DNA of 41,088 nucleotides from a virus (taxonomy: Duplodnaviria > Heunggongvirae > Uroviricota > Caudoviricetes). The first letter of the stretch is position 1. Each line of letters opens with the position of its first letter. A model generated the notes under the pieces. That model saw nothing but the letters and a program-made list of their open reading frames with translations, did not search any database and was not told where the DNA came from. The position numbers were made by a program, and so were the translations under genes. Shown piece after piece: positions 13,932-37,462 of this stretch. The stretch spans positions 1 to 41,088 of the IMG/VR virus record IMGVR_UViG_2579778622_000013; one strand, written 5' to 3'.

Positions 13932-14746
13932 TCTTTATTTTTATCCTCGAAACCTGATAATCCAGATAGAACACCAAAGTTATTAAAAACGTTTGGCTTA
14001 CCAGATTTTAATCCGGATAAGTTGTGTTGCTCCAAAAAGTTGCTAATTGTTTGGCCGTTGCCAAGTGCAAGGCTTTTTATTTGAGATTTTTCAGGGTATT
14101 TGAGTTTGTATTCGTCGAAATCATTTTGGAGAGTCTTATATGCCTCATTCATTCTTCCAAGAGTTTCCGATATCTCTTTTAATGAATGATTTAGAGTTGC
14201 TAACTGAGCACTGGCGGATCTCAATTCGTCATCTTTAGCTTTCAACTCGGCAGTCAATTCCCCCATACTATTCTTTGATCGAATAATCTCTTCTTTCATC
14301 TCTTGGATGTCTTTTTCCGCGCCAGTCTTAACTTTGTCGTATGTAACATCTTTTTTAGCCAATAACCTCTGCAGTCTTGTTTCACGCTGGATTTTTCTTG
14401 CCTTCAGGTGATTTTCGATTGAGTCATTATTATCAAGAGGCTTTGCTTGCCATACGTTAATGATATTGTTTACCCATGGTAATAGGCAGCAGATAGCAAT
14501 TACAGATAAGCATGGATAAAACATAACAGTTTTCCATGTGCTGTTATCTGAGATATATGAAATTTTATCTATTATGTTTGATTTGCTAAAAAATAGATAA
14601 AGAATTGATTTCCAGTTGAAGGCGCACCAGGACATAACAAAAGCACCAAGCACAGGGTTTTTGGCTCGATTCACGGCAGTATTGGCAGTAGATAAAAACA
14701 GCTCTTTGAACGATTCAAACATGCTAATTACCTTGAAGTTTTTCAT
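13928..14746 (-). CDS. Membrane-anchored coiled-coil moron protein, function unknown
   Basis: 272 aa from ATG 14746; two hydrophobic helices then long coiled coil; AT-rich; stop overlaps terL stop (convergent). Confidence 0.55.
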   Translation of the reverse strand: MKNFKVISMFESFKELFLSTANTAVNRAKNPVLGAFVMSWCAFNWKSILYLFFSKSNIIDKISYISDNSTWKTVMFYPCLSVIAICCLLPWVNNIINVWQAKPLDNNDSIENHLKARKIQRETRLQRLLAKKDVTYDKVKTGAEKDIQEMKEEIIRSKNSMGELTAELKAKDDELRSASAQLATLNHSLKEISETLGRMNEAYKTLQNDFDEYKLKYPEKSQIKSLALGNGQTISNFLEQHNLSGLKSGKPNVFNNFGVLSGLSGFEDKNKD

Positions 14747-14968: not shown

Positions 14969-15045
14969 TGGCGTGGCATGCAGGATTCGAACCTGCGACC
15001 AACCGCTTAGAAGTCGGTTGCTCTGTCCAACTGAGCTAATGCCAC
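14969..15045 (-). tRNA. tRNA-Arg (anticodon UCU), phage-encoded argU-like
   Basis: 77 nt with CCA; cloverleaf GTGGCAT/ATGCCAC acceptor stem, D-arm GCTC..GAGC, anticodon loop CTTCTAA, T-arm GCAGG TTCGAAT CCTGC; similar but not identical to E. coli argU as recalled. Confidence 0.85.
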
Positions 15046-28689: not shown

Positions 28690-31164
28690 ATGAGACAGGA
28701 ATGTATACAAGCGGTCCAGCAGGCGGCGCAGCGCACGTTAACGGCGCGAGAAATACAGAACATTGAAGACCGCATTTATCGAAATATGCGCTCTATTGCT
28801 CGTGATGACCCGATGTCGTGGAGACAACTTTCCGAATCAGAGCGGCTATATCGTGCAGCACAATTGGCATCTGAAGAATTACAGCGAGAAGCGGCATTAA
28901 AGAAACGTCGTGTGGCCCTCACTATAGCCGCACGTCAGAGATTGGATAAATTTATCAATAGCTATCAAGGGGCTGATGGGAAACTTGGCGCTCTTAACCG
29001 TACTATTGCTTTTAATGCAGACGGTAAATCGAATTTCCTCTCTGTTGAATCCAGAACAAAAGCCACCCGTGATTATGCATTGAGTCAATTGCAGGAGGCA
29101 TTCGAAGCAGTTGATCCTCGCTTTTTTGGTCTGTTTGAAGATGAAGCTGGCGTACGTGACCTGGTATATGAAATGCGGGGGCAAAATACTGGCAATGCTA
29201 AAGCAAGAAAAGGTGCTAAGGCGTGGAGAGAAGTTACAGAGCTGCTGCGCCGCCGGTTTAATGATGCTGGTGGGGACATTGGCTATCTCGAAAACTGGGG
29301 GATCCCTCAACATCATTCTATGGAAAAGGTTGGGGCGGTATCAAAAGATAAATGGGTTAGCGATGTTATAGGTAAGCTGGATCGCAAATATTATACCCGA
29401 GCCGATGGACAACTGATGAACGATGCCGAGTTGTCTGCATTTCTTGGAGAGGCTTATAACACGATCGCTACTGGTGGGTTGAATAAGCTTACTGATACCG
29501 GAATGCGAATTTCCGGCGCACGTGCTAACCGTGGTAATGCATCACGACAGATACATTTCAAAGATGCAGATTCCTATCTTCAATATCAGCAACTTTATGG
29601 CGATCGCTCTCTATGGGAAATCATGGTCGGTCACCTGGAAGGTATCAGTAAAGATATTGCACTGGTGGAAACATATGGCCCAAACCCCGATCATGTTTTC
29701 CGCTCTCTTCTTGATCAGGTGAAGGCAGAAACGGCAACAGCTAACCCGAGTAAAACCGGTAAAGTCGAGCGGCTGGCGAACAACACAGAGAATCTGTACA
29801 ACTTTATTTCCGGAAAGACACAGCCTGTAGCGAATCCGCACATCGCGCGATGGTCTGACAATATCCGCAACTGGCTGGTTGCCAGCAGACTCGGATCCGC
29901 GTTGCTGTCATCGTTCTCTGATCTTGGAACCATGTATCTGTCTGCGAAGGTTACCAACCTTCCAATGAACCAGTTATTCCGCAACCAGCTTGAAGCTATG
30001 GACCCAACGAACCGTACAGAACTTGCGCGGGCGCGCCGCGCTGGTCTGGCGATGGAATCTCTACTTGGCAGCGTTAACCGCTGGGCGATGGATAATATGG
30101 GGCCGTCTGTGTCTCGTTGGGCTGCAACGGCGGTAATGCGTGCCAGTGGGCTTACAGCATGGTCAGATGCGCACAAGCGCGCCTATGGCGTAACCATGAT
30201 GGGAAGCTTGGGAGAAGTAGTGTCACGGACACCAGACCTTCGTAGCCTCGATGATTCTGATTTTCGTATCCTGAAAAGCAAAGGGATTACTGACACAGAC
30301 TGGAGCGTATGGAAGCTGGCGCAACAGGAGGACTGGGGGAACGGCAATAATACGATGCTGACACCGGAAAGCATTATGCGTATCCCTGATTCAGCAGTTA
30401 AACATCTTGGTGAGCCTGAACGCGTGAAATTTGAGGCAATGCGTAAACTGCTCGGTGCCGTAACTGAAGAAGTTGATATGGCTGTTATTACACCGGGAGC
30501 ACGTGAGCAACTGATAACCGGTTCTGGTATTCAGCGTGGAACATGGAAAGGTGAATTAACGAGAAGTGTTTTCCTGTTTAAATCGTTCCCTATCTCGGTG
30601 GTTATGCGTCACTGGTCACGCGCTATGGGTATGCCGTCTGCTGGTGGGCGTGCGGCATATATTGCGACGTTTATTGCCAGTACGACCATTCTTGGCGCTT
30701 TGTCGCAGCAACTTAACGACCTTGCGTCTGGTCGTAATCCTCGCGAGATGACAGGAGAAGATGCTGCTAAATTTTGGCTTGGTGCTCTACTGAAAGGTGG
30801 TGGTCTTGGCCTTTACGGTGACTTTTTATTGTCAGATCACACTAGGTACGGAAGCGGCGCGCTGGCGTCGATGCTTGGCCCGGTAGCTGGTCTGGTTGAT
30901 GACGTAGTGAAGATTGCTCAGGGCATACCGTTAAATGCTGTGGAAGGGAAGAGTGAGCAGACTGGTGGTGATCTGGTGAAGCTGGGGAAAGGTTTGATGC
31001 CTGGTGCGAATCTCTGGTACTTGAAGGCGGCTCTCGATCACATGATCTTTAACCAGATGCAGGAGTATTTTTCACCAGGCTATTTGCGTAAAATGGAGCA
31101 ACGTTCGAAGAAAGAGTTTAACCAGACATACTGGTGGCGACCACAGGATGTCACTCCGCAATAA
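28690..31164 (+). CDS. Internal virion / ejection protein (gp16 C-part-like by position)
   Basis: 824 aa. Confidence 0.55.
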   Translation: MRQECIQAVQQAAQRTLTAREIQNIEDRIYRNMRSIARDDPMSWRQLSESERLYRAAQLASEELQREAALKKRRVALTIAARQRLDKFINSYQGADGKLGALNRTIAFNADGKSNFLSVESRTKATRDYALSQLQEAFEAVDPRFFGLFEDEAGVRDLVYEMRGQNTGNAKARKGAKAWREVTELLRRRFNDAGGDIGYLENWGIPQHHSMEKVGAVSKDKWVSDVIGKLDRKYYTRADGQLMNDAELSAFLGEAYNTIATGGLNKLTDTGMRISGARANRGNASRQIHFKDADSYLQYQQLYGDRSLWEIMVGHLEGISKDIALVETYGPNPDHVFRSLLDQVKAETATANPSKTGKVERLANNTENLYNFISGKTQPVANPHIARWSDNIRNWLVASRLGSALLSSFSDLGTMYLSAKVTNLPMNQLFRNQLEAMDPTNRTELARARRAGLAMESLLGSVNRWAMDNMGPSVSRWAATAVMRASGLTAWSDAHKRAYGVTMMGSLGEVVSRTPDLRSLDDSDFRILKSKGITDTDWSVWKLAQQEDWGNGNNTMLTPESIMRIPDSAVKHLGEPERVKFEAMRKLLGAVTEEVDMAVITPGAREQLITGSGIQRGTWKGELTRSVFLFKSFPISVVMRHWSRAMGMPSAGGRAAYIATFIASTTILGALSQQLNDLASGRNPREMTGEDAAKFWLGALLKGGGLGLYGDFLLSDHTRYGSGALASMLGPVAGLVDDVVKIAQGIPLNAVEGKSEQTGGDLVKLGKGLMPGANLWYLKAALDHMIFNQMQEYFSPGYLRKMEQRSKKEFNQTYWWRPQDVTPQ

Positions 31165-31175
31165 AAGGAGATATG

Positions 31176-31298
31176 ATGGTTCAAATAACTTTTATTGTAC
31201 TAATATGTGCAGCGTTTTTATGCTATTCATACATTTTGATAAAAATGGGTTTCAATTGGAATCTCTGTTGCGTGCAGCGGCATGGTTCGGCTTTGTAG
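31176..31298 (+). CDS. Small hydrophobic peptide (40 aa)
   Basis: ATG 31176 five nt after AAGGAG; MVQITFIVLICAAFLCYSYILIK...; AT-rich; different frame from ORF-track entry 31148..31336. Confidence 0.35.
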   Translation: MVQITFIVLICAAFLCYSYILIKMGFNWNLCCVQRHGSAL

Positions 31299-31383
31299 TA
31301 TTCGGAATTGTATTGTTCGGAAGAATAATAAAATAACTAGTTAATTTGTGGATTGGTGCTGTTTTTCCATGATAGGGGTAATT

Positions 31384-31764
31384 ATGAGAAAAGTATTTTT
31401 GATTTTTGGATTTATGCTTCTCGTTGGATGCCAGTCAGCTGCACAGTTTGAAAGAAATATGCTTACGTGGCGCGGGCAGAGTATAGACGCAATGGTTCAG
31501 CAGTGGGGGTATCCTCAGGGAGAGCTTACATCTCCAGATGGAAACAGAGTGTATGTTTACTCAAGCTCTGGTAGTTATAACGTACCACAAACCACAACGT
31601 ATAATACTACGTCTAATCTAATTGGTAATACTATATATTCAAACACATACGCAACAACTGATGGCGGTTATACACTCCATTTCAGTTGCTCTGTTTACGT
31701 TGAGTTTGGTGCTGATAAGATTATTAAAAATGTTACATGGCGCGGTAATAATTGCGTTGCGTGA
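31384..31764 (+). CDS. Moron lipoprotein (signal peptide plus lipobox LLVGC)
   Basis: MRKVFLIFGFMLLVGCQS...; Ser/Thr/Tyr/Asn-rich mature part; AT-rich. Confidence 0.6.
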   Translation: MRKVFLIFGFMLLVGCQSAAQFERNMLTWRGQSIDAMVQQWGYPQGELTSPDGNRVYVYSSSGSYNVPQTTTYNTTSNLIGNTIYSNTYATTDGGYTLHFSCSVYVEFGADKIIKNVTWRGNNCVA

Positions 31765-31772
31765 CATGTCAC

Positions 31773-31797
31773 AGGCCGCTTTCGCGGCCTTGTTTTT
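31773..31797 (+). terminator. Rho-independent terminator after lipoprotein gene
   Basis: Stem AGGCCGC/GCGGCCT, loop TTTC, then TGTTTTT. Confidence 0.6.
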
Positions 31798-31957
31798 AAC
31801 GAATGCCACCGTCACCCGGGCGGGAATCCGCAGAACGCCCACCGCAGCGGGAGCCGTCAGCGGCAGTATCGCTGTCGTGCTGACAACGACCGGCAAAGGC
31901 CTGAGTTGAAGCTACCAGAGACAACAAAACGAACAGTGCAGCAAATGCTTTTTTCAT
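31796..31957 (-). CDS. Small secreted Cys-containing peptide (53 aa)
   Basis: MKKAFAALFVLLSLVASTQAFA signal-peptide-like N-terminus; weak RBS. Confidence 0.3.
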   Translation of the reverse strand: MKKAFAALFVLLSLVASTQAFAGRCQHDSDTAADGSRCGGRSADSRPGDGGIR

Positions 31958-32027
31958 TGTGAAATTTCCATCTATAAGCCACCTCAATGTGGCGTCAATG
32001 AGTGTAGCACTGACTTTTGTTTCGTCC

Positions 32028-32050
32028 ACAAAAAAGCCCGCGCTGCGGGC
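32028..32050 (-). terminator. Rho-independent terminator after the 210-aa moron gene
   Basis: Stem AGCCCGC/GCGGGCT followed by a T-run on the minus strand. Confidence 0.6.
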
Positions 32051-32055
32051 TTCTA

Positions 32056-32688
32056 TTAATGCAGTTTATCTTTGCTTATAACCAGTAGTCTGTGGGTATG
32101 CACATCTTTATCACTGCCCCAACAGAAATCAGCCCACTGGCTATAGAAATCATCCCATGATGCCATGAAGCTAAGAGGTCTATCTTCTTCAGAGCCATCT
32201 GAAACGTATACATTATATCCTGGGGTGTTTATAGCCCAAGAAATCATTCTTTCCCAGAATCTTCTCCCATCGATTGTTTGTTGCTCATCAGATACAACGA
32301 TCGCATATTGCTCTAGGAAGAACTGAAAAAAAATCTGAGGCAAACCATGAACAGCACGGTCATGAATAACATTAGGCGTACGCCATACCATGATCTGCGT
32401 ACATGTTCTTTTGGCTTCGACGATATCTTCCCGAAAGATTAACTTAACCGCATACACCGTTTCTGGAGTATCGCTGGTAGTAATCATTCTGTAATGATCG
32501 CCATTACAAGATTTTACAAGGCGATAACCATAAGGTGTTGTGAATCCCGGAAGAACGAAATCAACCACACCTTTCGCTAAGTAGCTTTCGGTGTGACTAG
32601 TGTTCTTCTCAGACATGTTCAGTTTTCTATCGAAATCTGCTTCTGGGATAATGTATGGCATCGCTTTTCTTGTTGTATTTGTTCTCAT
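32056..32688 (-). CDS. Hypothetical cytoplasmic moron protein (210 aa)
   Basis: Strong GGGAGGA RBS; AT-rich; no recognisable motif; own operator-containing upstream region. Confidence 0.6.
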   Translation of the reverse strand: MRTNTTRKAMPYIIPEADFDRKLNMSEKNTSHTESYLAKGVVDFVLPGFTTPYGYRLVKSCNGDHYRMITTSDTPETVYAVKLIFREDIVEAKRTCTQIMVWRTPNVIHDRAVHGLPQIFFQFFLEQYAIVVSDEQQTIDGRRFWERMISWAINTPGYNVYVSDGSEEDRPLSFMASWDDFYSQWADFCWGSDKDVHTHRLLVISKDKLH

Positions 32689-32747
32689 TTCGTCCTCCCA
32701 TGTTTGGCTACAGGACGCGTTTTGAAGGGAAGATTAAAAATGCTTTC

Positions 32748-32762
32748 TTACCCTTGAGGTAA
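32748..32762. promoter_or_regulatory. Operator-like palindrome TTACCCTTGAGGTAA
   Basis: Perfect dyad ~60 nt upstream of the 32688 start codon. Confidence 0.45.
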
Positions 32763-32834
32763 TAGTACGCTATTCACCCCCAGTCTGCAATCTGTACAGA
32801 ATTATTTAAAGGCACATCCCTGTGCCGCCGCCCG

Positions 32835-33545
32835 TCAGAAGAACCCTGCCTTGTCGTTGATGTACTCCGCGTGCGTCTGGATATCACGCAGGCATTTGCT
32901 CACACCGACGATGTAGCAGAACATGGTGGTCAGCTCCGCCGCCGCGCCCGATACGTCGTGCCCGTCGTCCTGTAACTGGTTCAGCAGATTCATCAGCAGT
33001 GAGTTCTCCGTCAGGCCGAGAACACCAGACGGCGAGTGAATCAGGCTGCGGTAGCCGGGCTTCAGCGGGGCGCTGTAGGTTTTGTTCTCTATCTTCATTG
33101 CCTGCATCACTGCTGACGCCGTGGCGTTGGCTACCTGGTCGGCAACCATCTTTATGCGTTCTTCCTGCGGGAGCGAGTTTTTAATGTAACTTCCGGTGCG
33201 GCGGATCTGAGGAAGAACCTCACCTGTAACCCATTTACGAAAGCGGTAGGGGATAGTGCCTGGTGTCACTGCGTCGCGGCAGCGGAGGATCAGTGTGTAG
33301 AGGCCTGACTCGGAGATGATGTTGATCTCTTTTACTCGGCTGTCAAAAATTGCACGATGTTCATGCCCTATGTTGAACATAGACCTTTCATCATCATCCA
33401 GTTTTTCAAGTGCTTGGGTGACGTTTTGGATACGCAGCGCACTACAAACGTCTTGGGCTACAAACCATGGTTGGCCATCGATAATGATGGAACGGATAGG
33501 GTTAACAGATTCAAATTTGAAGATGGCAGTTTGAGCATTAGCCAT
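32835..33545 (-). CDS. Antirepressor, Bro-N/AntA-type N-terminal domain
   Basis: N-terminus MANAQTAIFKFE..IRSIIIDGQPWFVAQDVCSALRI typical of Bro-N/AntA; ATG 33545 with GGAGA RBS. Confidence 0.75.
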   Translation of the reverse strand: MANAQTAIFKFESVNPIRSIIIDGQPWFVAQDVCSALRIQNVTQALEKLDDDERSMFNIGHEHRAIFDSRVKEINIISESGLYTLILRCRDAVTPGTIPYRFRKWVTGEVLPQIRRTGSYIKNSLPQEERIKMVADQVANATASAVMQAMKIENKTYSAPLKPGYRSLIHSPSGVLGLTENSLLMNLLNQLQDDGHDVSGAAAELTTMFCYIVGVSKCLRDIQTHAEYINDKAGFF

Positions 33546-33942
33546 GGTGGTTATCTCCACTTAGTGATTTTAATCACCACCGCAACGCCAATTACTGGTG
33601 GTGAACTGGACAAGGTTGGCGTACCGGCCTAAGTGGTACCGGCGTCCTTTCGGACCCCTGCCCAGCCCACCATAATTCGGATATAGCTGTGCTTAACGCA
33701 TAAAAAAACCACGTCTGGCGTGGTATGCGCCACTTAGTAACTCGGGACGCCAATCCCGGCACTGGATTTTGCCAGTACCCGATTACTATGGCACAAGAGG
33801 AGTGCGATGTAAATTTACCGCAAAGGTAATGATAAACGCGTAGAAATATCAAAATCAACCGTATTTGGTTGATTGCGTTTAACGCTTGATCACCTGAAAG
33901 CAAGATATTACCTTTAAGGTAATGTTATTGTGAGGAAAAGCA
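33546..33942. promoter_or_regulatory. Divergent control region and long antirepressor leader
   Basis: Dyads at 33815-33829 and 33908-33922; minus-strand intrinsic terminator 33702-33724; palindrome GTGATTTTAATCAC at 33564-33577; three mutually complementary 9-mers. Confidence 0.45.
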
Positions 33943-34671
33943 ATGGAAGTTTTCTGGATAGTTGTTGGTGTGGTTGCGGTGATTATTTACGTTATCAACC
34001 AGAACAAGACTAAGATCTCTGATCGTACGGTCGTTAATCATAACAAAACGATAAAGACCGAAGATGGGGAGATAACGATTAATCGTACACAGGTGATAGA
34101 ACACACCTCTACTCAGTTTCAAAAAACTGGAGGTAATGCGCCTAATATTTCCGCACCTCCTGCTTATGATAGTGCGGTAATCCAGACATATTATAAACAG
34201 CAGGAGTTAGCAAAAGAGAGGCAACTGATTCAGCCAAAGCCATTTACAGCAGAGCTTCCACCTGGAGTGTCAACGCGTCCGGCATATCATGGAAGATTCC
34301 CTGGTGATGACACATCGTCTCAGTCACCTAAAAAAGCACCTCAGGCAGTATCAGAGCCAGCAAGAATACCTTCTGTATCGCCGCCAAAAGAAGAATCAGC
34401 TAACAGAGTTTCAAGTGGTAGCAAGCAGTGCTTGCGATGCAGAATAAATCTTCCATATGAAAAATTCAGGAAATCGTCAAAAAATCCAGATGGATTGACT
34501 AAGTGGTGTGCAAGGTGTCTCGATGGCCCAAAGAATACACGCCATATGAAGTGGTGCCCAATTTGTAATGTCCGCAGAAAACGAACAAGCTTTTACCCTA
34601 ATAATCAAAATGCGGACGGCTTAATGGCATGGTGCAAAACGTGCTGGGATGAGCACAAAGCGAAACGATAG
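33943..34671 (+). CDS. Membrane-anchored protein with tandem CxxC zinc-ribbon repeats
   Basis: N-terminal TM helix VFWIVVGVVAVIIYVI; two repeats C-x2-C..DGL..WC-x2-C at the C-terminus. Confidence 0.6.
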   Translation: MEVFWIVVGVVAVIIYVINQNKTKISDRTVVNHNKTIKTEDGEITINRTQVIEHTSTQFQKTGGNAPNISAPPAYDSAVIQTYYKQQELAKERQLIQPKPFTAELPPGVSTRPAYHGRFPGDDTSSQSPKKAPQAVSEPARIPSVSPPKEESANRVSSGSKQCLRCRINLPYEKFRKSSKNPDGLTKWCARCLDGPKNTRHMKWCPICNVRRKRTSFYPNNQNADGLMAWCKTCWDEHKAKR

Positions 34672-34694
34672 GCCGCTCTTGCGGCCTTTAAATT
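34671..34694 (+). terminator. Rho-independent terminator
   Basis: GGCCGC-TCTT-GCGGCC then TTTAAATTT. Confidence 0.55.
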
Positions 34695-34951
34695 TACCGG
34701 GTTTGTTTTCGTAATTGTTCGGCACAATAGTCGAGATGTGTTTGCAGATCCCGCATAGACATCTGTGAGCTGGTGACGTAGTTAATCAGTGCAGTCAGTT
34801 CGGCAAGTGGGCCATCGACATTAAATCCATCCTTATCGAGATCCCGGAGTAATTTCATCAAGTGCGATCCCTCCACCAGTGACCTGACGCCTCCCGGCGT
34901 GTGAATCCTTTCGGTAAATCCGTCTTCCAGTGGATAGTGATACCGCTGCAT
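34694..34951 (-). CDS. Small protein homologous to the antirepressor C-terminal domain; LexA-boxed (candidate SOS antirepressor)
   Basis: 85 aa from ATG 34951 with GGAGA RBS; TPGGVRSLVEGSHLMKLLRDLDKDGFNVDGPLAELT..MRDLQTHLDY parallels the Ant C-terminus SPSGVLGLTENSLLMNLLNQLQDDGHDVSGAAAELT..LRDIQTHAEY. Confidence 0.6.
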   Translation of the reverse strand: MQRYHYPLEDGFTERIHTPGGVRSLVEGSHLMKLLRDLDKDGFNVDGPLAELTALINYVTSSQMSMRDLQTHLDYCAEQLRKQTR

Positions 34952-34972
34952 CTTATCTTCTCCATGCAATAA

Positions 34973-35146: not shown

Positions 35147-37462
35147 ATGACGGTCTCAACCGAAGTTAACCACAACGAATACACAGGTAACGGCGTTACG
35201 ACATCGTTTCCGTATACTTTTCGAATTTTCAGAAAATCAGACCTGGTTGTTCAGGTGTCTGACCTGAACGGGAACGTAACAGAATTGGTTCTGGATACCG
35301 GTTATACGGTAACTGGGGCGGGCACTTATAGTGGCGGTTCAGTGGTTCTGCCGTCTCCGCTTGCTGCTGGCTGGCGAATTACGATAGATCGTGTGCTTGA
35401 TGTAGTGCAGGAGACAGATCTTCGCAATCAGGGAAAATTTTTCCCCGAAGTGCATGAAGATGCTTTTGACTACCTGACGATGCTGATCCAGCAATGTTTT
35501 GGGTGGTTCAGACGTGCATTGATGAAACCATCTTTGCTTGCAAAATATTACGATGCAAAGCAAAACAAAATTTCTAACCTTGCAGATCCATCACTTGAGC
35601 AGGACGCTGTAAATAATCGCTCAATGCGTAATTATGTCGATGCTGCAATCGCCGGGGTTGTTGGTGGTTTTGGTTGGTTTATTCAGTATGGTTCTGGAGC
35701 AGTATACCGAACGTTCCAGGATAAGATGAGAGACACCGTTAGTGTTCGCGATTTTGGGGCAAAAGGCGATGGTATAACAGATGATACATCTGCATTGATC
35801 CTGGCTGCAGAATATGCACGAGAATCATCCAGAACATTACGAGCGGAAGGTAATTTTATTATTACGGAGACATTAAATCTTCGTAATGTCAGCCTCGAAA
35901 TGACCAATGCTGTTTTTACCATATCCCACTCAGGAATAGGGGTATTGCTTGGCGGGAATGCATCAAACCCTAACAACCCAAGACAAAACTTCGGAACGAT
36001 TATCAGAAATTCTGGTATTTCATCTGAAACGACACCGGATATTCGTATTATCGGGGCAAAAGGGCAGCATATAAACATTGAGCGTTGCGACTACTTACAG
36101 TTATATGCAAATTATAATGCTTCGGTGGCATCGACGGATTATTCAATAGCATACTCAACCTTTAACCTGAAAAAGGTCGATACAATTCATTTTCTTGGAG
36201 TTGAGAAAGGATGGATAAATGAAAACTATTTTTATCTGAATCGTACGAATAATATCATTTTCGCTGATAATCCATATCATCATAACCACAATAAGTTTTA
36301 TGGTGGAACTATGGAGGGGGCAGGTAAAATTGATATTCAAAGAGGTGATAACAATTACTTCTACGGGTTTCGTTTTGAACGAGATCCATCATCCCAAACT
36401 AACCAACAGTTGATAATTAACTTTGGTGAATATACGTGGAATAACTCAATTGAAGCTACATGGTTAAGTTCTCCTTACTATACAAATGAGCCATACAATC
36501 CATCACCTTACACTTATGTCGAGGTAACTGATAATGGCAAGGGGAATGCAGTATTTCATATTCAGGAAAATATATCCGATGAAGTAACATTGTTTTCTTT
36601 AAATGCTAACACCCCATTTATATCCAGTGCTAACAATGGAGAAGTTGGTGTATTAGCATTTCAAACAGATGTAGATGGTTTATATAATATCCGTCACCTG
36701 GTTTCTTCTAAGTTTGCTTTTATGCGGAATTTTGGGTTGTTATGGGAATCTGGAGATGTACCAGTAAGAAATGGTGATATGTTTACATTCTCAGCAGATA
36801 CGGCATCGTTTCGCATTTACCTGTATGCATTAGATGGAGATGGGAATGTCATAACTTCACAAACAGAAGCAATAACTTCTTCTATGCAATGGGATTCATC
36901 TAACCATAGATATGCTACTGTTGCTAACATTTCTTCCATTAAGATCAGGATTAATAATGAAGGGGTTCCAGTTAGTGCAATTCGTTTAGCTGTGTATTCT
37001 GGTGGTAATGTAGCGAATACTGCATTTTCATGGCTATGCTTAACTGGTAGATATTACAAAAATAGCACATCCTTGCCAAGGAAAAGCAAAGATAACTTCA
37101 CCTTAAAACAAGGAAAAGCAATTACTTATTATAGTGATACTGATATTAGTATGGCTAACATTGGTTCAGGAATTACCTGTTATAAAACCGATTTATCTGA
37201 ACTCAAAATTAATCTTGTAAGGGGCAGGTATTTAGTGAAATCAATTTCAGGCAGTGAAATATATGTATACCAAGGAACAGTCACTTATTACCCTCCATTC
37301 AGTGATGTCAAATTGGTATATACGGATGGGGTTGAAAATAAATTATTAGATGTGCAAAACATCTCTTCAGAAAAGATTACTCTTGCAGATACAGTACCAT
37401 CAGCTATATCTGCAGGTGATTTTGTAGATATTATTGTTACAAAGACGAAATCTATTTTATGA
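35147..37462 (+). CDS. Tailspike with N-terminal particle-binding domain and pectate-lyase-like beta-helix (polysaccharide depolymerase)
   Basis: 771 aa; N-terminal segment ..RNQGKFFPEVHEDAFDYLT..; VSVRDFGAKGDGITDDTSAL pectate-lyase-superfamily hallmark; AT-rich C-terminal two-thirds. Confidence 0.85.
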   Translation: MTVSTEVNHNEYTGNGVTTSFPYTFRIFRKSDLVVQVSDLNGNVTELVLDTGYTVTGAGTYSGGSVVLPSPLAAGWRITIDRVLDVVQETDLRNQGKFFPEVHEDAFDYLTMLIQQCFGWFRRALMKPSLLAKYYDAKQNKISNLADPSLEQDAVNNRSMRNYVDAAIAGVVGGFGWFIQYGSGAVYRTFQDKMRDTVSVRDFGAKGDGITDDTSALILAAEYARESSRTLRAEGNFIITETLNLRNVSLEMTNAVFTISHSGIGVLLGGNASNPNNPRQNFGTIIRNSGISSETTPDIRIIGAKGQHINIERCDYLQLYANYNASVASTDYSIAYSTFNLKKVDTIHFLGVEKGWINENYFYLNRTNNIIFADNPYHHNHNKFYGGTMEGAGKIDIQRGDNNYFYGFRFERDPSSQTNQQLIINFGEYTWNNSIEATWLSSPYYTNEPYNPSPYTYVEVTDNGKGNAVFHIQENISDEVTLFSLNANTPFISSANNGEVGVLAFQTDVDGLYNIRHLVSSKFAFMRNFGLLWESGDVPVRNGDMFTFSADTASFRIYLYALDGDGNVITSQTEAITSSMQWDSSNHRYATVANISSIKIRINNEGVPVSAIRLAVYSGGNVANTAFSWLCLTGRYYKNSTSLPRKSKDNFTLKQGKAITYYSDTDISMANIGSGITCYKTDLSELKINLVRGRYLVKSISGSEIYVYQGTVTYYPPFSDVKLVYTDGVENKLLDVQNISSEKITLADTVPSAISAGDFVDIIVTKTKSIL

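Follow-up and report, generated by a model that had tools for sequence, protein, structure and literature searches.

What does a small group of genes do between the late virion genes and the antirepressor gene of a temperate podovirus? The question is raised by positions 31165-32762 (the island) of IMG/VR virus record IMGVR_UViG_2579778622_000013, whose whole stretch of 41,088 nucleotides (nt) is referred to below as the window. Sequence similarity places the window among the phiV10/epsilon15-like (Uetakevirus) prophages of extraintestinal pathogenic Escherichia coli (ExPEC): a megablast search with the region returned the Uetakevirus phages phiV10, TL-2011b, vB_EcoP_ZX5 and phiv142-3, and a 1.75-kb query was 99.7-99.8% identical to prophages of E. 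coli CE10 (O7:K1), of APEC O1 and of 14 further complete genomes. A preliminary description of this DNA had listed four open reading frames (ORFs) in the island and had regarded them as moron-like accessory genes. All four ORFs exist (Table 1), RefSeq annotates those of 126, 53 and 210 amino acids (aa) with the same coordinates, and the view of the island as accessory DNA was borne out, with parts that are lacking or replaced in relatives, deviating composition and terminators. The island is a real accessory-gene (moron) hot spot and almost certainly consists of three independently exchangeable cassettes, at the boundary of the late virion operon and the immI unit.

This anatomy was derived from pairwise blastn comparisons with six relatives, in which sharp mosaic breakpoints were found at 31164/31177, 31759, 32051/32052 and 32748. 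On the left side, the homology with relatives always stops at 31164/31177, directly after the 824-aa virion gene (counterpart of phiV10p20), which is the terminal conserved gene of the late operon; on the right side, it restarts at 32748. The breakpoints delimit three cassettes: (i) cassette A, of which 31178-31758 is swapped for a 46-aa peptide in phiV10 and 2015C-4944, and for which the Salmonella counterpart of the same segment is the lipoprotein alone, with 70% nucleotide identity; (ii) cassette B, where the segment 31759-32051, comprising terminator T1, the 53-aa gene and terminator T2, is common to the window, TL-2011b and phiv142-3; (iii) cassette C, where 32052-32747 gives way to a YafO-type toxin with a small partner in TL-2011b and to a DUF2335 protein in Salmonella. 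All four ORFs are missing from phiV10, and differing subsets of them are present in TL-2011b, phiv142-3, 2015C-4944 and the Salmonella relatives.

Compared to the morons of Hendrix and Juhala (HK97 gene 15, lambda bor and lom, P22 sieA), the island is alike in being extra DNA with a deviating base composition and with terminators, and, like them, it is found within a late or structural operon or at its border. The extra DNA is absent from close relatives (phiV10 and others), with 29 architectures among the 47 loci surveyed below. The GC content of the island is 42.2%, compared to 48.4% for the window and to 49.4% and 52.5% for the flanking genes, so that the stretch is indeed AT-rich overall, as had been stated; however, the composition is heterogeneous, and the 53-aa gene, with 56.8%, is an exception. 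Terminator T1 closes the late operon together with cassette A and is common to phiV10, TL-2011b and phiv142-3; its region (31759-31818) is kept in relatives, and a terminator is annotated there in phiV10. Terminator T2 is part of the conserved cassette-B block, since the homology with TL-2011b and phiv142-3 extends to 32051; the consensus terminator scanner did not list it, and it was found as an inverted repeat followed by a T-run. Both terminators are therefore real, whereas the suggestion that each gene is bounded by one of its own was too generous: only two are canonical, and the 53-aa gene has none of its own, because T1 on the minus strand has no T-run. The island also differs from gp15, Bor, Lom and SieA in that its products resemble none of them and its promoters are putative. 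Unlike the one-off morons of the classical kind, cassette C has the regularity of a defined cargo position, in which both the junction and the terminator are shared.

The regularity of this position was followed in a survey of 46 IMG/VR relatives which, together with the window, gave the 47 loci. Position A has the lipoprotein in 8 loci and, alternatively, a polytopic membrane protein of 98 aa in 25 loci. In position C, the 210-aa gene was found in 9 loci, YafO with a 59-aa partner in 8 and DUF4760 in 7, the other cargoes being DUF2335, a second YafO type and several unknowns. A junction of approximately 90 bp (32840-32748) has 88-99% identity upstream of at least seven cargo types, and the break between junction and cargo falls at 32743-32750 every time, the cargo-specific sequence of the window starting from 32748-32750. 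It should be noted that the recombination point thus lies on the same few bases before at least seven unrelated cargoes. The slot is well defined: its breakpoints are fixed, its junction and terminator are shared, and no fewer than eight cargoes alternate in it, two of which are toxin-antitoxin modules.

From its sequence, the junction may act as a shared cargo promoter. A TACTAT-TACC element also stands upstream of the homologue of the 210-aa gene in the unrelated lambdoid phage LLS. No sigma-70 site above the scanner threshold was found in 31900-32900; both promoter candidates of the island (TTGCAG-17-TACTAT and TTGACG-16-TATAGA) were read from the sequence and are under that threshold. The preliminary description had also placed an operator-like dyad upstream of the 210-aa gene. 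The palindrome TCTGTACAGA is indeed present at 32791-32800, but as a single copy, and a match with at most one mismatch occurred in 49 of 100 shuffles, i.e., at chance level; it was rejected as an operator.

P2 and P4 prophages reportedly have defence hot spots (Rousset et al.). The slot described here is alike in that unrelated cargoes, including toxin-antitoxin modules, interchange at a fixed site between conserved flanks. It differs in phage family and position, and its cargoes match no catalogued defence system: PADLOC-DB 2.0, at E <= 0.1, gave no match for the four island products and Ant, and the PADLOC models gave none for eight alternative cargoes. Scans of all products with Pfam, NCBIfam and PADLOC returned Bro-N, in the adjoining antirepressor gene, and no other family.

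Table 1. Positions of the island features and of the flanking elements in the window
Feature	Position	Strand	Remarks
Cassette A	31165-31758		small membrane-peptide gene (apparently frameshift-split) and lipoprotein
40-aa ORF, frame A	31176..31298	+	Shine-Dalgarno (SD) sequence AAGGAG 31165-31170, 5 nt upstream of start
Second small ORF	31205..31336	+	-1 frame relative to frame A; carries second helix WFGFVVFGIVL
126-aa lipoprotein precursor	31384..31764	+	lipobox LVGC16, Gln at +2; RefSeq-annotated
Cassette B	31760-32051		53-aa precursor of conserved 31-aa secreted peptide
Intrinsic terminator T1	31773..31797	+	7-bp GC stem and TGTTTTT, -14.3 kcal/mol
53-aa precursor	31796..31957	-	RefSeq WP_000708858; phrog_14503
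Candidate promoter of 53-aa gene	TTGACG (31998-31993), 16 nt, TATAGA (31976-31971)	-	read from sequence
Intrinsic terminator T2 of 210-aa cargo gene	32028..32052	-	8-nt perfect arms, then TTTTTTG, -15.3 kcal/mol
Cassette C	32052-32747		210-aa gene, between shared junction and shared terminator
210-aa cytoplasmic protein	32056..32688	-	phrog_1349 (full length); RefSeq WP_001260052
Cargo junction	32748..32834	-	Ant-gene hairpin 32826-32811, TCTGTACAGA 32800-32791, putative promoter
Putative cargo promoter	TTGCAG (32790-32785), 17 nt, TACTAT (32767-32762)	-	under scanner threshold
Left anchor: 824-aa virion (internal/ejection-type) protein	28690..31164	+	phrog_684 'virion structural protein', E = 0
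Right anchor: Bro-N antirepressor	32835..33560	-	Pfam PF02498, E = 1e-19; phrog_130
C4 antisense RNA	33594-33677	-	Rfam 66 bits (gathering score 45)
isrK-like RNA	33702-33778	-	Rfam 63.5 bits (gathering score 50)
a1/b1 target sites	33739-33791	-	Rfam 43.4 bits, slightly under gathering score 46.7

The products were considered one by one, starting with the lipoprotein of cassette A. The lipobox proposed earlier was read as L-V-G-C16, and Cys16 is invariant in the 22 homologues aligned, as are Cys102, Cys124 and the core WGYP...GN.VYVY. There are 37 homologous clusters, almost all of 126 aa; an extended 138-aa ORF (GTG 31348) was rejected, because the homologues begin at the internal Met. Lipoprotein sorting follows the established +2 rule, and because Gln is found at +2, sorting to the outer membrane is expected. 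A very common prophage of Salmonella has the lipoprotein in the corresponding slot, where it starts 10 bp after the virion gene. The sole PHROG match is phrog_3716, a family of unknown function. The structural model of the lipoprotein matched the folds of BamE, OsmE, BLIP-like and type VI secretion system immunity (BtiO) domains, suggesting a predicted domain of the BamE/OsmE/BLIP-like, protein-binding type. Compared to such domains (SmpA_OmlA-type, including BtiO), the lipoprotein has a longer beta-sheet, made of five long strands, and also an insert rich in Asn, Thr and Tyr; a Pfam scan at E <= 0.1 matched no family, PF04355 included.

This fold does not agree with the Cor/Llp-type role suggested in the preliminary description, for which no link was found either in sequence (Pfam, PHROG and NCBIfam scans) or among the structural matches. 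The lipoprotein and T5 Llp or lambdoid Cor are alike in being small phage lipobox lipoproteins, expected in the outer membrane, with cysteines able to pair. However, the mature form of the window protein (~110 aa) is larger, its fold is the BamE/OsmE/BLIP-like one, and the phage type of the window uses O-antigen via the tailspike and not FhuA. An exclusion role for the lipoprotein is possible. As a separate observation, a Serratia prophage (L006, 5001-7459) has a homologue of the 210-aa protein adjoining a P22-type antirepressor, an Arc repressor and a 126-aa BamE-like lipoprotein, i.e., the gene kinds are combined as in the window, with unrelated sequences; a relationship between the two lipoproteins was rejected on this ground.

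The other gene of cassette A had been described as encoding a 40-aa hydrophobic peptide. The ORF and its SD sequence exist, but the 3' half reads better in the -1 frame. The ORF is unannotated in RefSeq, and copies were found only at >=99% identity, in 34 genomes; since every E. coli copy is this similar, there is no comparative support for the 40-aa frame. Twenty-four relatives have, at the same position and with the same SD start, a 57-aa two-helix peptide. The motif WFxFVVxGIVL of the -1 frame is common to this peptide (9/11 residues identical), with codons that differ synonymously between the two (GTA/GTT, GTA/GTG, ATT/ATA and others); the -1-frame ORF clusters with the 57-aa peptide of the relatives, and for frame A no similarity to that peptide was found. 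If one A is added to the A5 run at 31241-31245, both frames are joined into a 53-aa two-helix hairpin peptide, which aligns with the 57-aa version with a z of 4.8 relative to shuffles. The reading frames thus suggest that the 40-aa ORF probably encodes the N-terminal half of a two-helix membrane peptide, in a gene disrupted by a frameshift, and that the A5 run is the likely frameshift site; ribosomal slippage at this run is possibly the alternative to a fixed frameshift.

The 53-aa product of cassette B had been read as carrying a signal peptide, and we agree: an MKK-hydrophobic-AFA|G signal peptide was read from the sequence. It is followed by a hydrophilic mature part of 31 aa with Cys25 and Cys38, an Asp-rich DxDTAADGSRC stretch and 19 positions that are invariant in the alignment. 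The homologues fall into 54 clusters across Enterobacterales, and the signal peptide varies, the mature part being conserved far more strongly. Judged by these features, the product would behave as a 31-aa mini-peptide, periplasmic or secreted; the database name 'transmembrane anchored protein' fits only if the signal peptide is uncleaved. An extended ORF of 77 aa (GTG 32029) was rejected, because the homologues begin at the internal Met and because it would run through the terminator.

The 210-aa protein of cassette C had been called an orphan. This description had to be abandoned, since the protein belongs to phrog_1349 and has 63 homologous clusters in Enterobacterales, and a profile search (E <= 1e-3) matched 920 representative clusters at 50% identity. 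Among 5426 complete E. coli genomes, 94 have the gene, which is intact at >=99% identity in 93 of them. The protein itself has no Pfam, NCBIfam or PADLOC match, and a sequence search of the PDB with two family profiles returned nothing, or chance hits to de novo TIM barrels.

Members of the family are found in add-on slots of phages of four unrelated types, on plasmids and, as single genes, at fixed chromosomal sites of five genera. In phage LLS, the homologue follows the lysis genes, which we take to be where lambda carries bor; in P1-like elements, the gene-16/R baseplate-tail-fibre block is on one side of it and an SLT-domain gene on the other, presumably the pmgA-sit position of the P1 map. 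In siphoviral prophages of Serratia and Leclercia, homologues are found between the tail chaperone and tape-measure genes, the very slot of the HK97 gp15 exclusion moron (PMC3594210). Forty-seven plasmids (Aeromonas, Shewanella, Pantoea and others) have homologues, too. On chromosomes, a lone gene is present at a fixed site in Photorhabdus (six species, between cellobiose phosphotransferase system genes and hda), in the Enterobacter group (~17 species, between genes for a major facilitator superfamily protein and an XRE protein on one side and nfsB on the other), in Proteus (between thiD and pagP), in Morganella, and in Xenorhabdus (between ppc and metF). The gp15/YebO family likewise has non-prophage chromosomal homologues (PMC3594210). 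A search of 64 genome loci and of several contexts on phages and plasmids found no conserved partner gene of the family, and neighbours of the homologue on Shewanella plasmids were rejected as paralogues.

Some distant members have unusual arrangements. Two metagenomic loci (L014, 851-2148; L015, 4186-5480) contain a distant member and, after a gap of 15 bp, a downstream paralogue of 205 aa (hhalign probability 99.6%). Fusions were also found: P0151 (L023, 1519-2262) carries the N-terminal zinc-binding domain of the antitoxin MqsA (E = 3e-20), P0135 has a weakly SAD/SRA-like N-terminus, and P0144 has a C-terminal DUF5397.

No motif had been recognised in the 210-aa protein; a weak GNAT-like fold signal was, however, detected, which the sequence does not support. 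The AlphaFold2 model is confident (predicted local distance difference test score 81.5, predicted template-modelling score 0.77) and resembles GNAT acyltransferases alone, and weakly; the best Foldseek hits are aminoglycoside 2'-N-acetyltransferases, and the GNAT toxins AtaT, TacT and KacT are among the structural matches. Positions N29, Y79, Q98, W102, R103, D134, Q137, T138, G141, F144, W145 and W190 are conserved in the wide family, the polar ones being N29, Y79, Q98, R103, D134, Q137 and T138; such a pattern would fit a ligand or active site where a strand meets a helix. The acetyl-CoA pyrophosphate-binding GNAT motif A (Q/R-x-x-G-x-G/A) was not found in either family alignment, and the two candidate coenzyme A (CoA) registers, HGLPQ 114-118 and QTIDGRR 137-143, each come from an insignificant hhalign match. 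The hhalign comparison of the family profile to RimI and SpeG gave a probability of <1%, with conflicting registers. A Pfam scan of 57 distant members at E <= 10 contained no acetyltransferase among the 25 most frequent of 41 families, the matches of interest being single fusions only (MqsA N-terminal domain, DUF5397 and a weak SRA match). The structural model thus suggests, tentatively, that the protein works like a GNAT-type protein, and we do not assign it to the superfamily; the likeness is kept tentative because the CoA motif is unrecognisable and the profile comparison with two GNATs is insignificant.

What could these products have in common? We tentatively propose that the island genes serve the lysogen or phage-phage conflict and not virion building, a proposal held at distinctly less than even confidence. 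It is drawn from the neighbours (toxin-antitoxin modules and exclusion-moron slots), the mobility of the genes and the envelope targeting of their products. On the P22 map, the exclusion gene sieA is located downstream of the ejection-protein genes. SieA blocks DNA delivery (PMC10883804), and prophage accessory slots have repeatedly given exclusion or defence functions, as in HK97 gp15, P22 SieA and the P2/P4 hot spots. If this proposal is right, the lipoprotein, the secreted peptide and the membrane peptide would reach the periplasm or the outer membrane, bind a component of the host or of an incoming phage, and act in the style of superinfection exclusion, whereas the 210-aa protein would be a solo cytoplasmic, divergent GNAT-like and probably acyl-CoA-dependent modifier or binder, with its own short leader and promoter and an effect independent of a phage partner. 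Taken as a whole, anatomy and mechanism together, this is our best explanation, with a chance that falls somewhat short of even.

Several results weigh against it. Neither the island genes nor the alternative cargoes had a PADLOC match, and no known toxin or named exclusion family was matched; a search of the literature for the accessions, the phrog identifiers, GNAT proteins in prophage defence, Uetakevirus hot spots and BamE-like exclusion returned nothing on these genes. Long-term syntenic retention of the 210-aa gene in several genera is unusual for defence and fits a housekeeping-like role equally. The cargo promoter is under the scanner threshold, cassette A has no recognisable promoter and stands upstream of the late terminator, and the lipoprotein gene of the Salmonella relatives begins 10 bp past the virion gene, so that the cassette may be late lytic and not expressed in the lysogen.

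The points on cassette A lead to an alternative in which its genes are late lytic genes, made with the virion proteins and acting at the end of infection, either by masking a receptor or a component of the envelope against loss of progeny on debris or by helping to disrupt the envelope. T5 Llp is a precedent, as it masks the receptor so that progeny are not lost on debris. Cassette A is on the strand of the late operon and before the shared late terminator, the phiV10-type small two-helix peptide gene directly follows the stop codon of the 824-aa gene with the same SD position, and upstream of the cassette there are weak promoter-like matches only. Conversely, the genes are dispensable, as many relatives lack the lipoprotein or have an unrelated membrane protein; the low GC content of the cassette A genes (34-40%) marks them as acquired; and consensus scanning does not exclude a promoter that is active in the lysogen. 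Late expression of the lipoprotein is a serious alternative, because the gene is upstream of the late terminator and has no clear promoter; as an account of the whole cassette, we consider it somewhat unlikely.

The retention of the 210-aa gene on chromosomes suggests another alternative: the protein could be an enzyme of host physiology, e.g., an N-acyltransferase of small molecules or cell-wall precursors that gives tolerance to a toxic compound, is simply ferried by phages and has no part in conflict between phages. The stable persistence of the lone gene at set core-genome sites across species (Photorhabdus, the Enterobacter group, Proteus), the aminoglycoside 2'-N-acetyltransferases as best structural hits, and good -10 boxes directly upstream of the chromosomal copies argue for it. 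The weakness of the fold match, the unrecognisable CoA motif, and the strong association with mobile elements, in slots that otherwise hold toxin-antitoxin or exclusion genes, argue against it; tandem paralogues and fusions (the MqsA N-terminal zinc domain, the weak SRA-like domain) are also more typical of conflict systems. Such an enzyme is a doubtful candidate, of about the standing of late expression.

A stronger form of the proposal that the island genes act in the lysogen or in conflict is that the 210-aa family is a large, unnamed family of stand-alone, divergent GNAT-like proteins, with about 920 clusters and no Pfam entry, and a new single-gene conflict effector (defence or counter-defence), present in add-on slots of at least four unrelated types of temperate phages and on plasmids, and fixed in chromosomes repeatedly. 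We regard this as rather unlikely. Part of this effector-family reading is that the Uetakevirus cargo position is a hot spot not described before, the cargoes of which share a promoter junction and a terminator; to this we give the same low probability.

The YafO toxin modules that relatives have in the same position and the GNAT toxins among the structural matches raise the alternative of a dose-sensitive toxin-like or anti-defence effector, the translation of which would be limited by a leader hairpin pairing with the ribosome-binding site. The strong ribosome-binding site noted earlier is present, with GGAGG at 32698-32694, 5 nt before the ATG. The leader of the window is 32689-32725 (minus strand). 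In most leaders of the family, phage and chromosomal, a TCC element is conserved 10-15 nt upstream of GGAGG; the pairings are CGTCCT/AGGACG in the window, TTGTCC/GGACAA in Xenorhabdus and CTCC/GGAG in Serratia. Minimum free energy folds pair the TCC element with the SD sequence, and there is one compensatory difference (C-G to T-A) between clades. However, RNAalifold found no consensus structure for the family leaders, and SD occlusion was not above that of shuffled leaders (the fraction of shuffles at or below the observed value was 0.2-0.7 for most); therefore, the claim of an SD-sequestering hairpin was dropped. The TCC of the leaders is reported as conserved sequence and not as a structure, the pairing being plausible. 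In contrast to the GNAT-type type II toxin-antitoxin systems (TacT, AtaT, KacT), the 210-aa gene has no upstream antitoxin and no conserved partner: the 146 bp upstream of the start codon are ORF-free as far as the Ant gene, a terminator follows downstream, and lone chromosomal copies persist without partners. A toxin-like effector of this kind is improbable.

It is very improbable that the ORFs, or some of them, are remnants without function at a recombination-prone junction, as the apparently frameshifted small-peptide region and the highly mosaic slot could suggest, given that the lipoprotein, the 53-aa and the 210-aa products are each backed by dozens of clusters of full-length homologues, in which residues are conserved, and that the 210-aa ORF is intact, with >=99% identity, in 93 genomes.

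Prophages of this family are often found in pathogenic E. coli and Salmonella. If any of the products excludes phages or alters the envelope, this would bear on the host range of phage therapy in ExPEC lineages; a true exclusion or envelope role would add a new family to the catalogue of defence or lysogenic conversion, and if there is none, the island is another mosaic junction. If the effector-family reading is true, the slot could be mined for further systems.

The flanks of the island agree with the placement given in the preliminary description, between virion genes and antirepressor. On the 5' side, the large internal virion genes encode proteins of 837 aa (with transglycosylase-type matches), 600 aa and 824 aa. 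On the right, C4, isrK and the a1/b1 sites lie directly upstream of the antirepressor gene on the same strand, and the flank is therefore a P1-type immI unit. It should be noted that the P1/Gifsy-type immI RNA switch is thus used by a podoviral Uetakevirus prophage (Rfam, 33594-33791, minus strand).

Several other features of the window were observed beyond the island. A 242-aa ORF at 33943-34671 (plus strand; phrog_6762) separates the immI region from the conserved gene that comes next. Its product has a hydrophobic helix at the N-terminus and zinc-ribbon repeats at the C-terminus, and it weakly matches endonuclease VII, Lar-like and Stc1 proteins; the ORF is another insert, because it is absent from phiV10 and 2015C-4944. 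A 91-aa ORF at 34694-34969 (minus strand) has phrog_450 and phrog_15539 in common with the C-terminal part of the antirepressor, so that this C-terminal domain also exists as a separate nearby gene. The tailspike (35147-37462, plus strand), which follows the antirepressor gene downstream, has approximately 170 conserved N-terminal residues and a variable C-terminal part of 33-36% GC, and in close relatives its place is taken by an endosialidase, a GDSL lipase or a P22-type tailspike domain. Finally, a tRNA-Arg (anticodon TCT; 14969-15045, minus strand) is located within the prophage and adjoins a stretch of low GC content (38%, 14001-14500).

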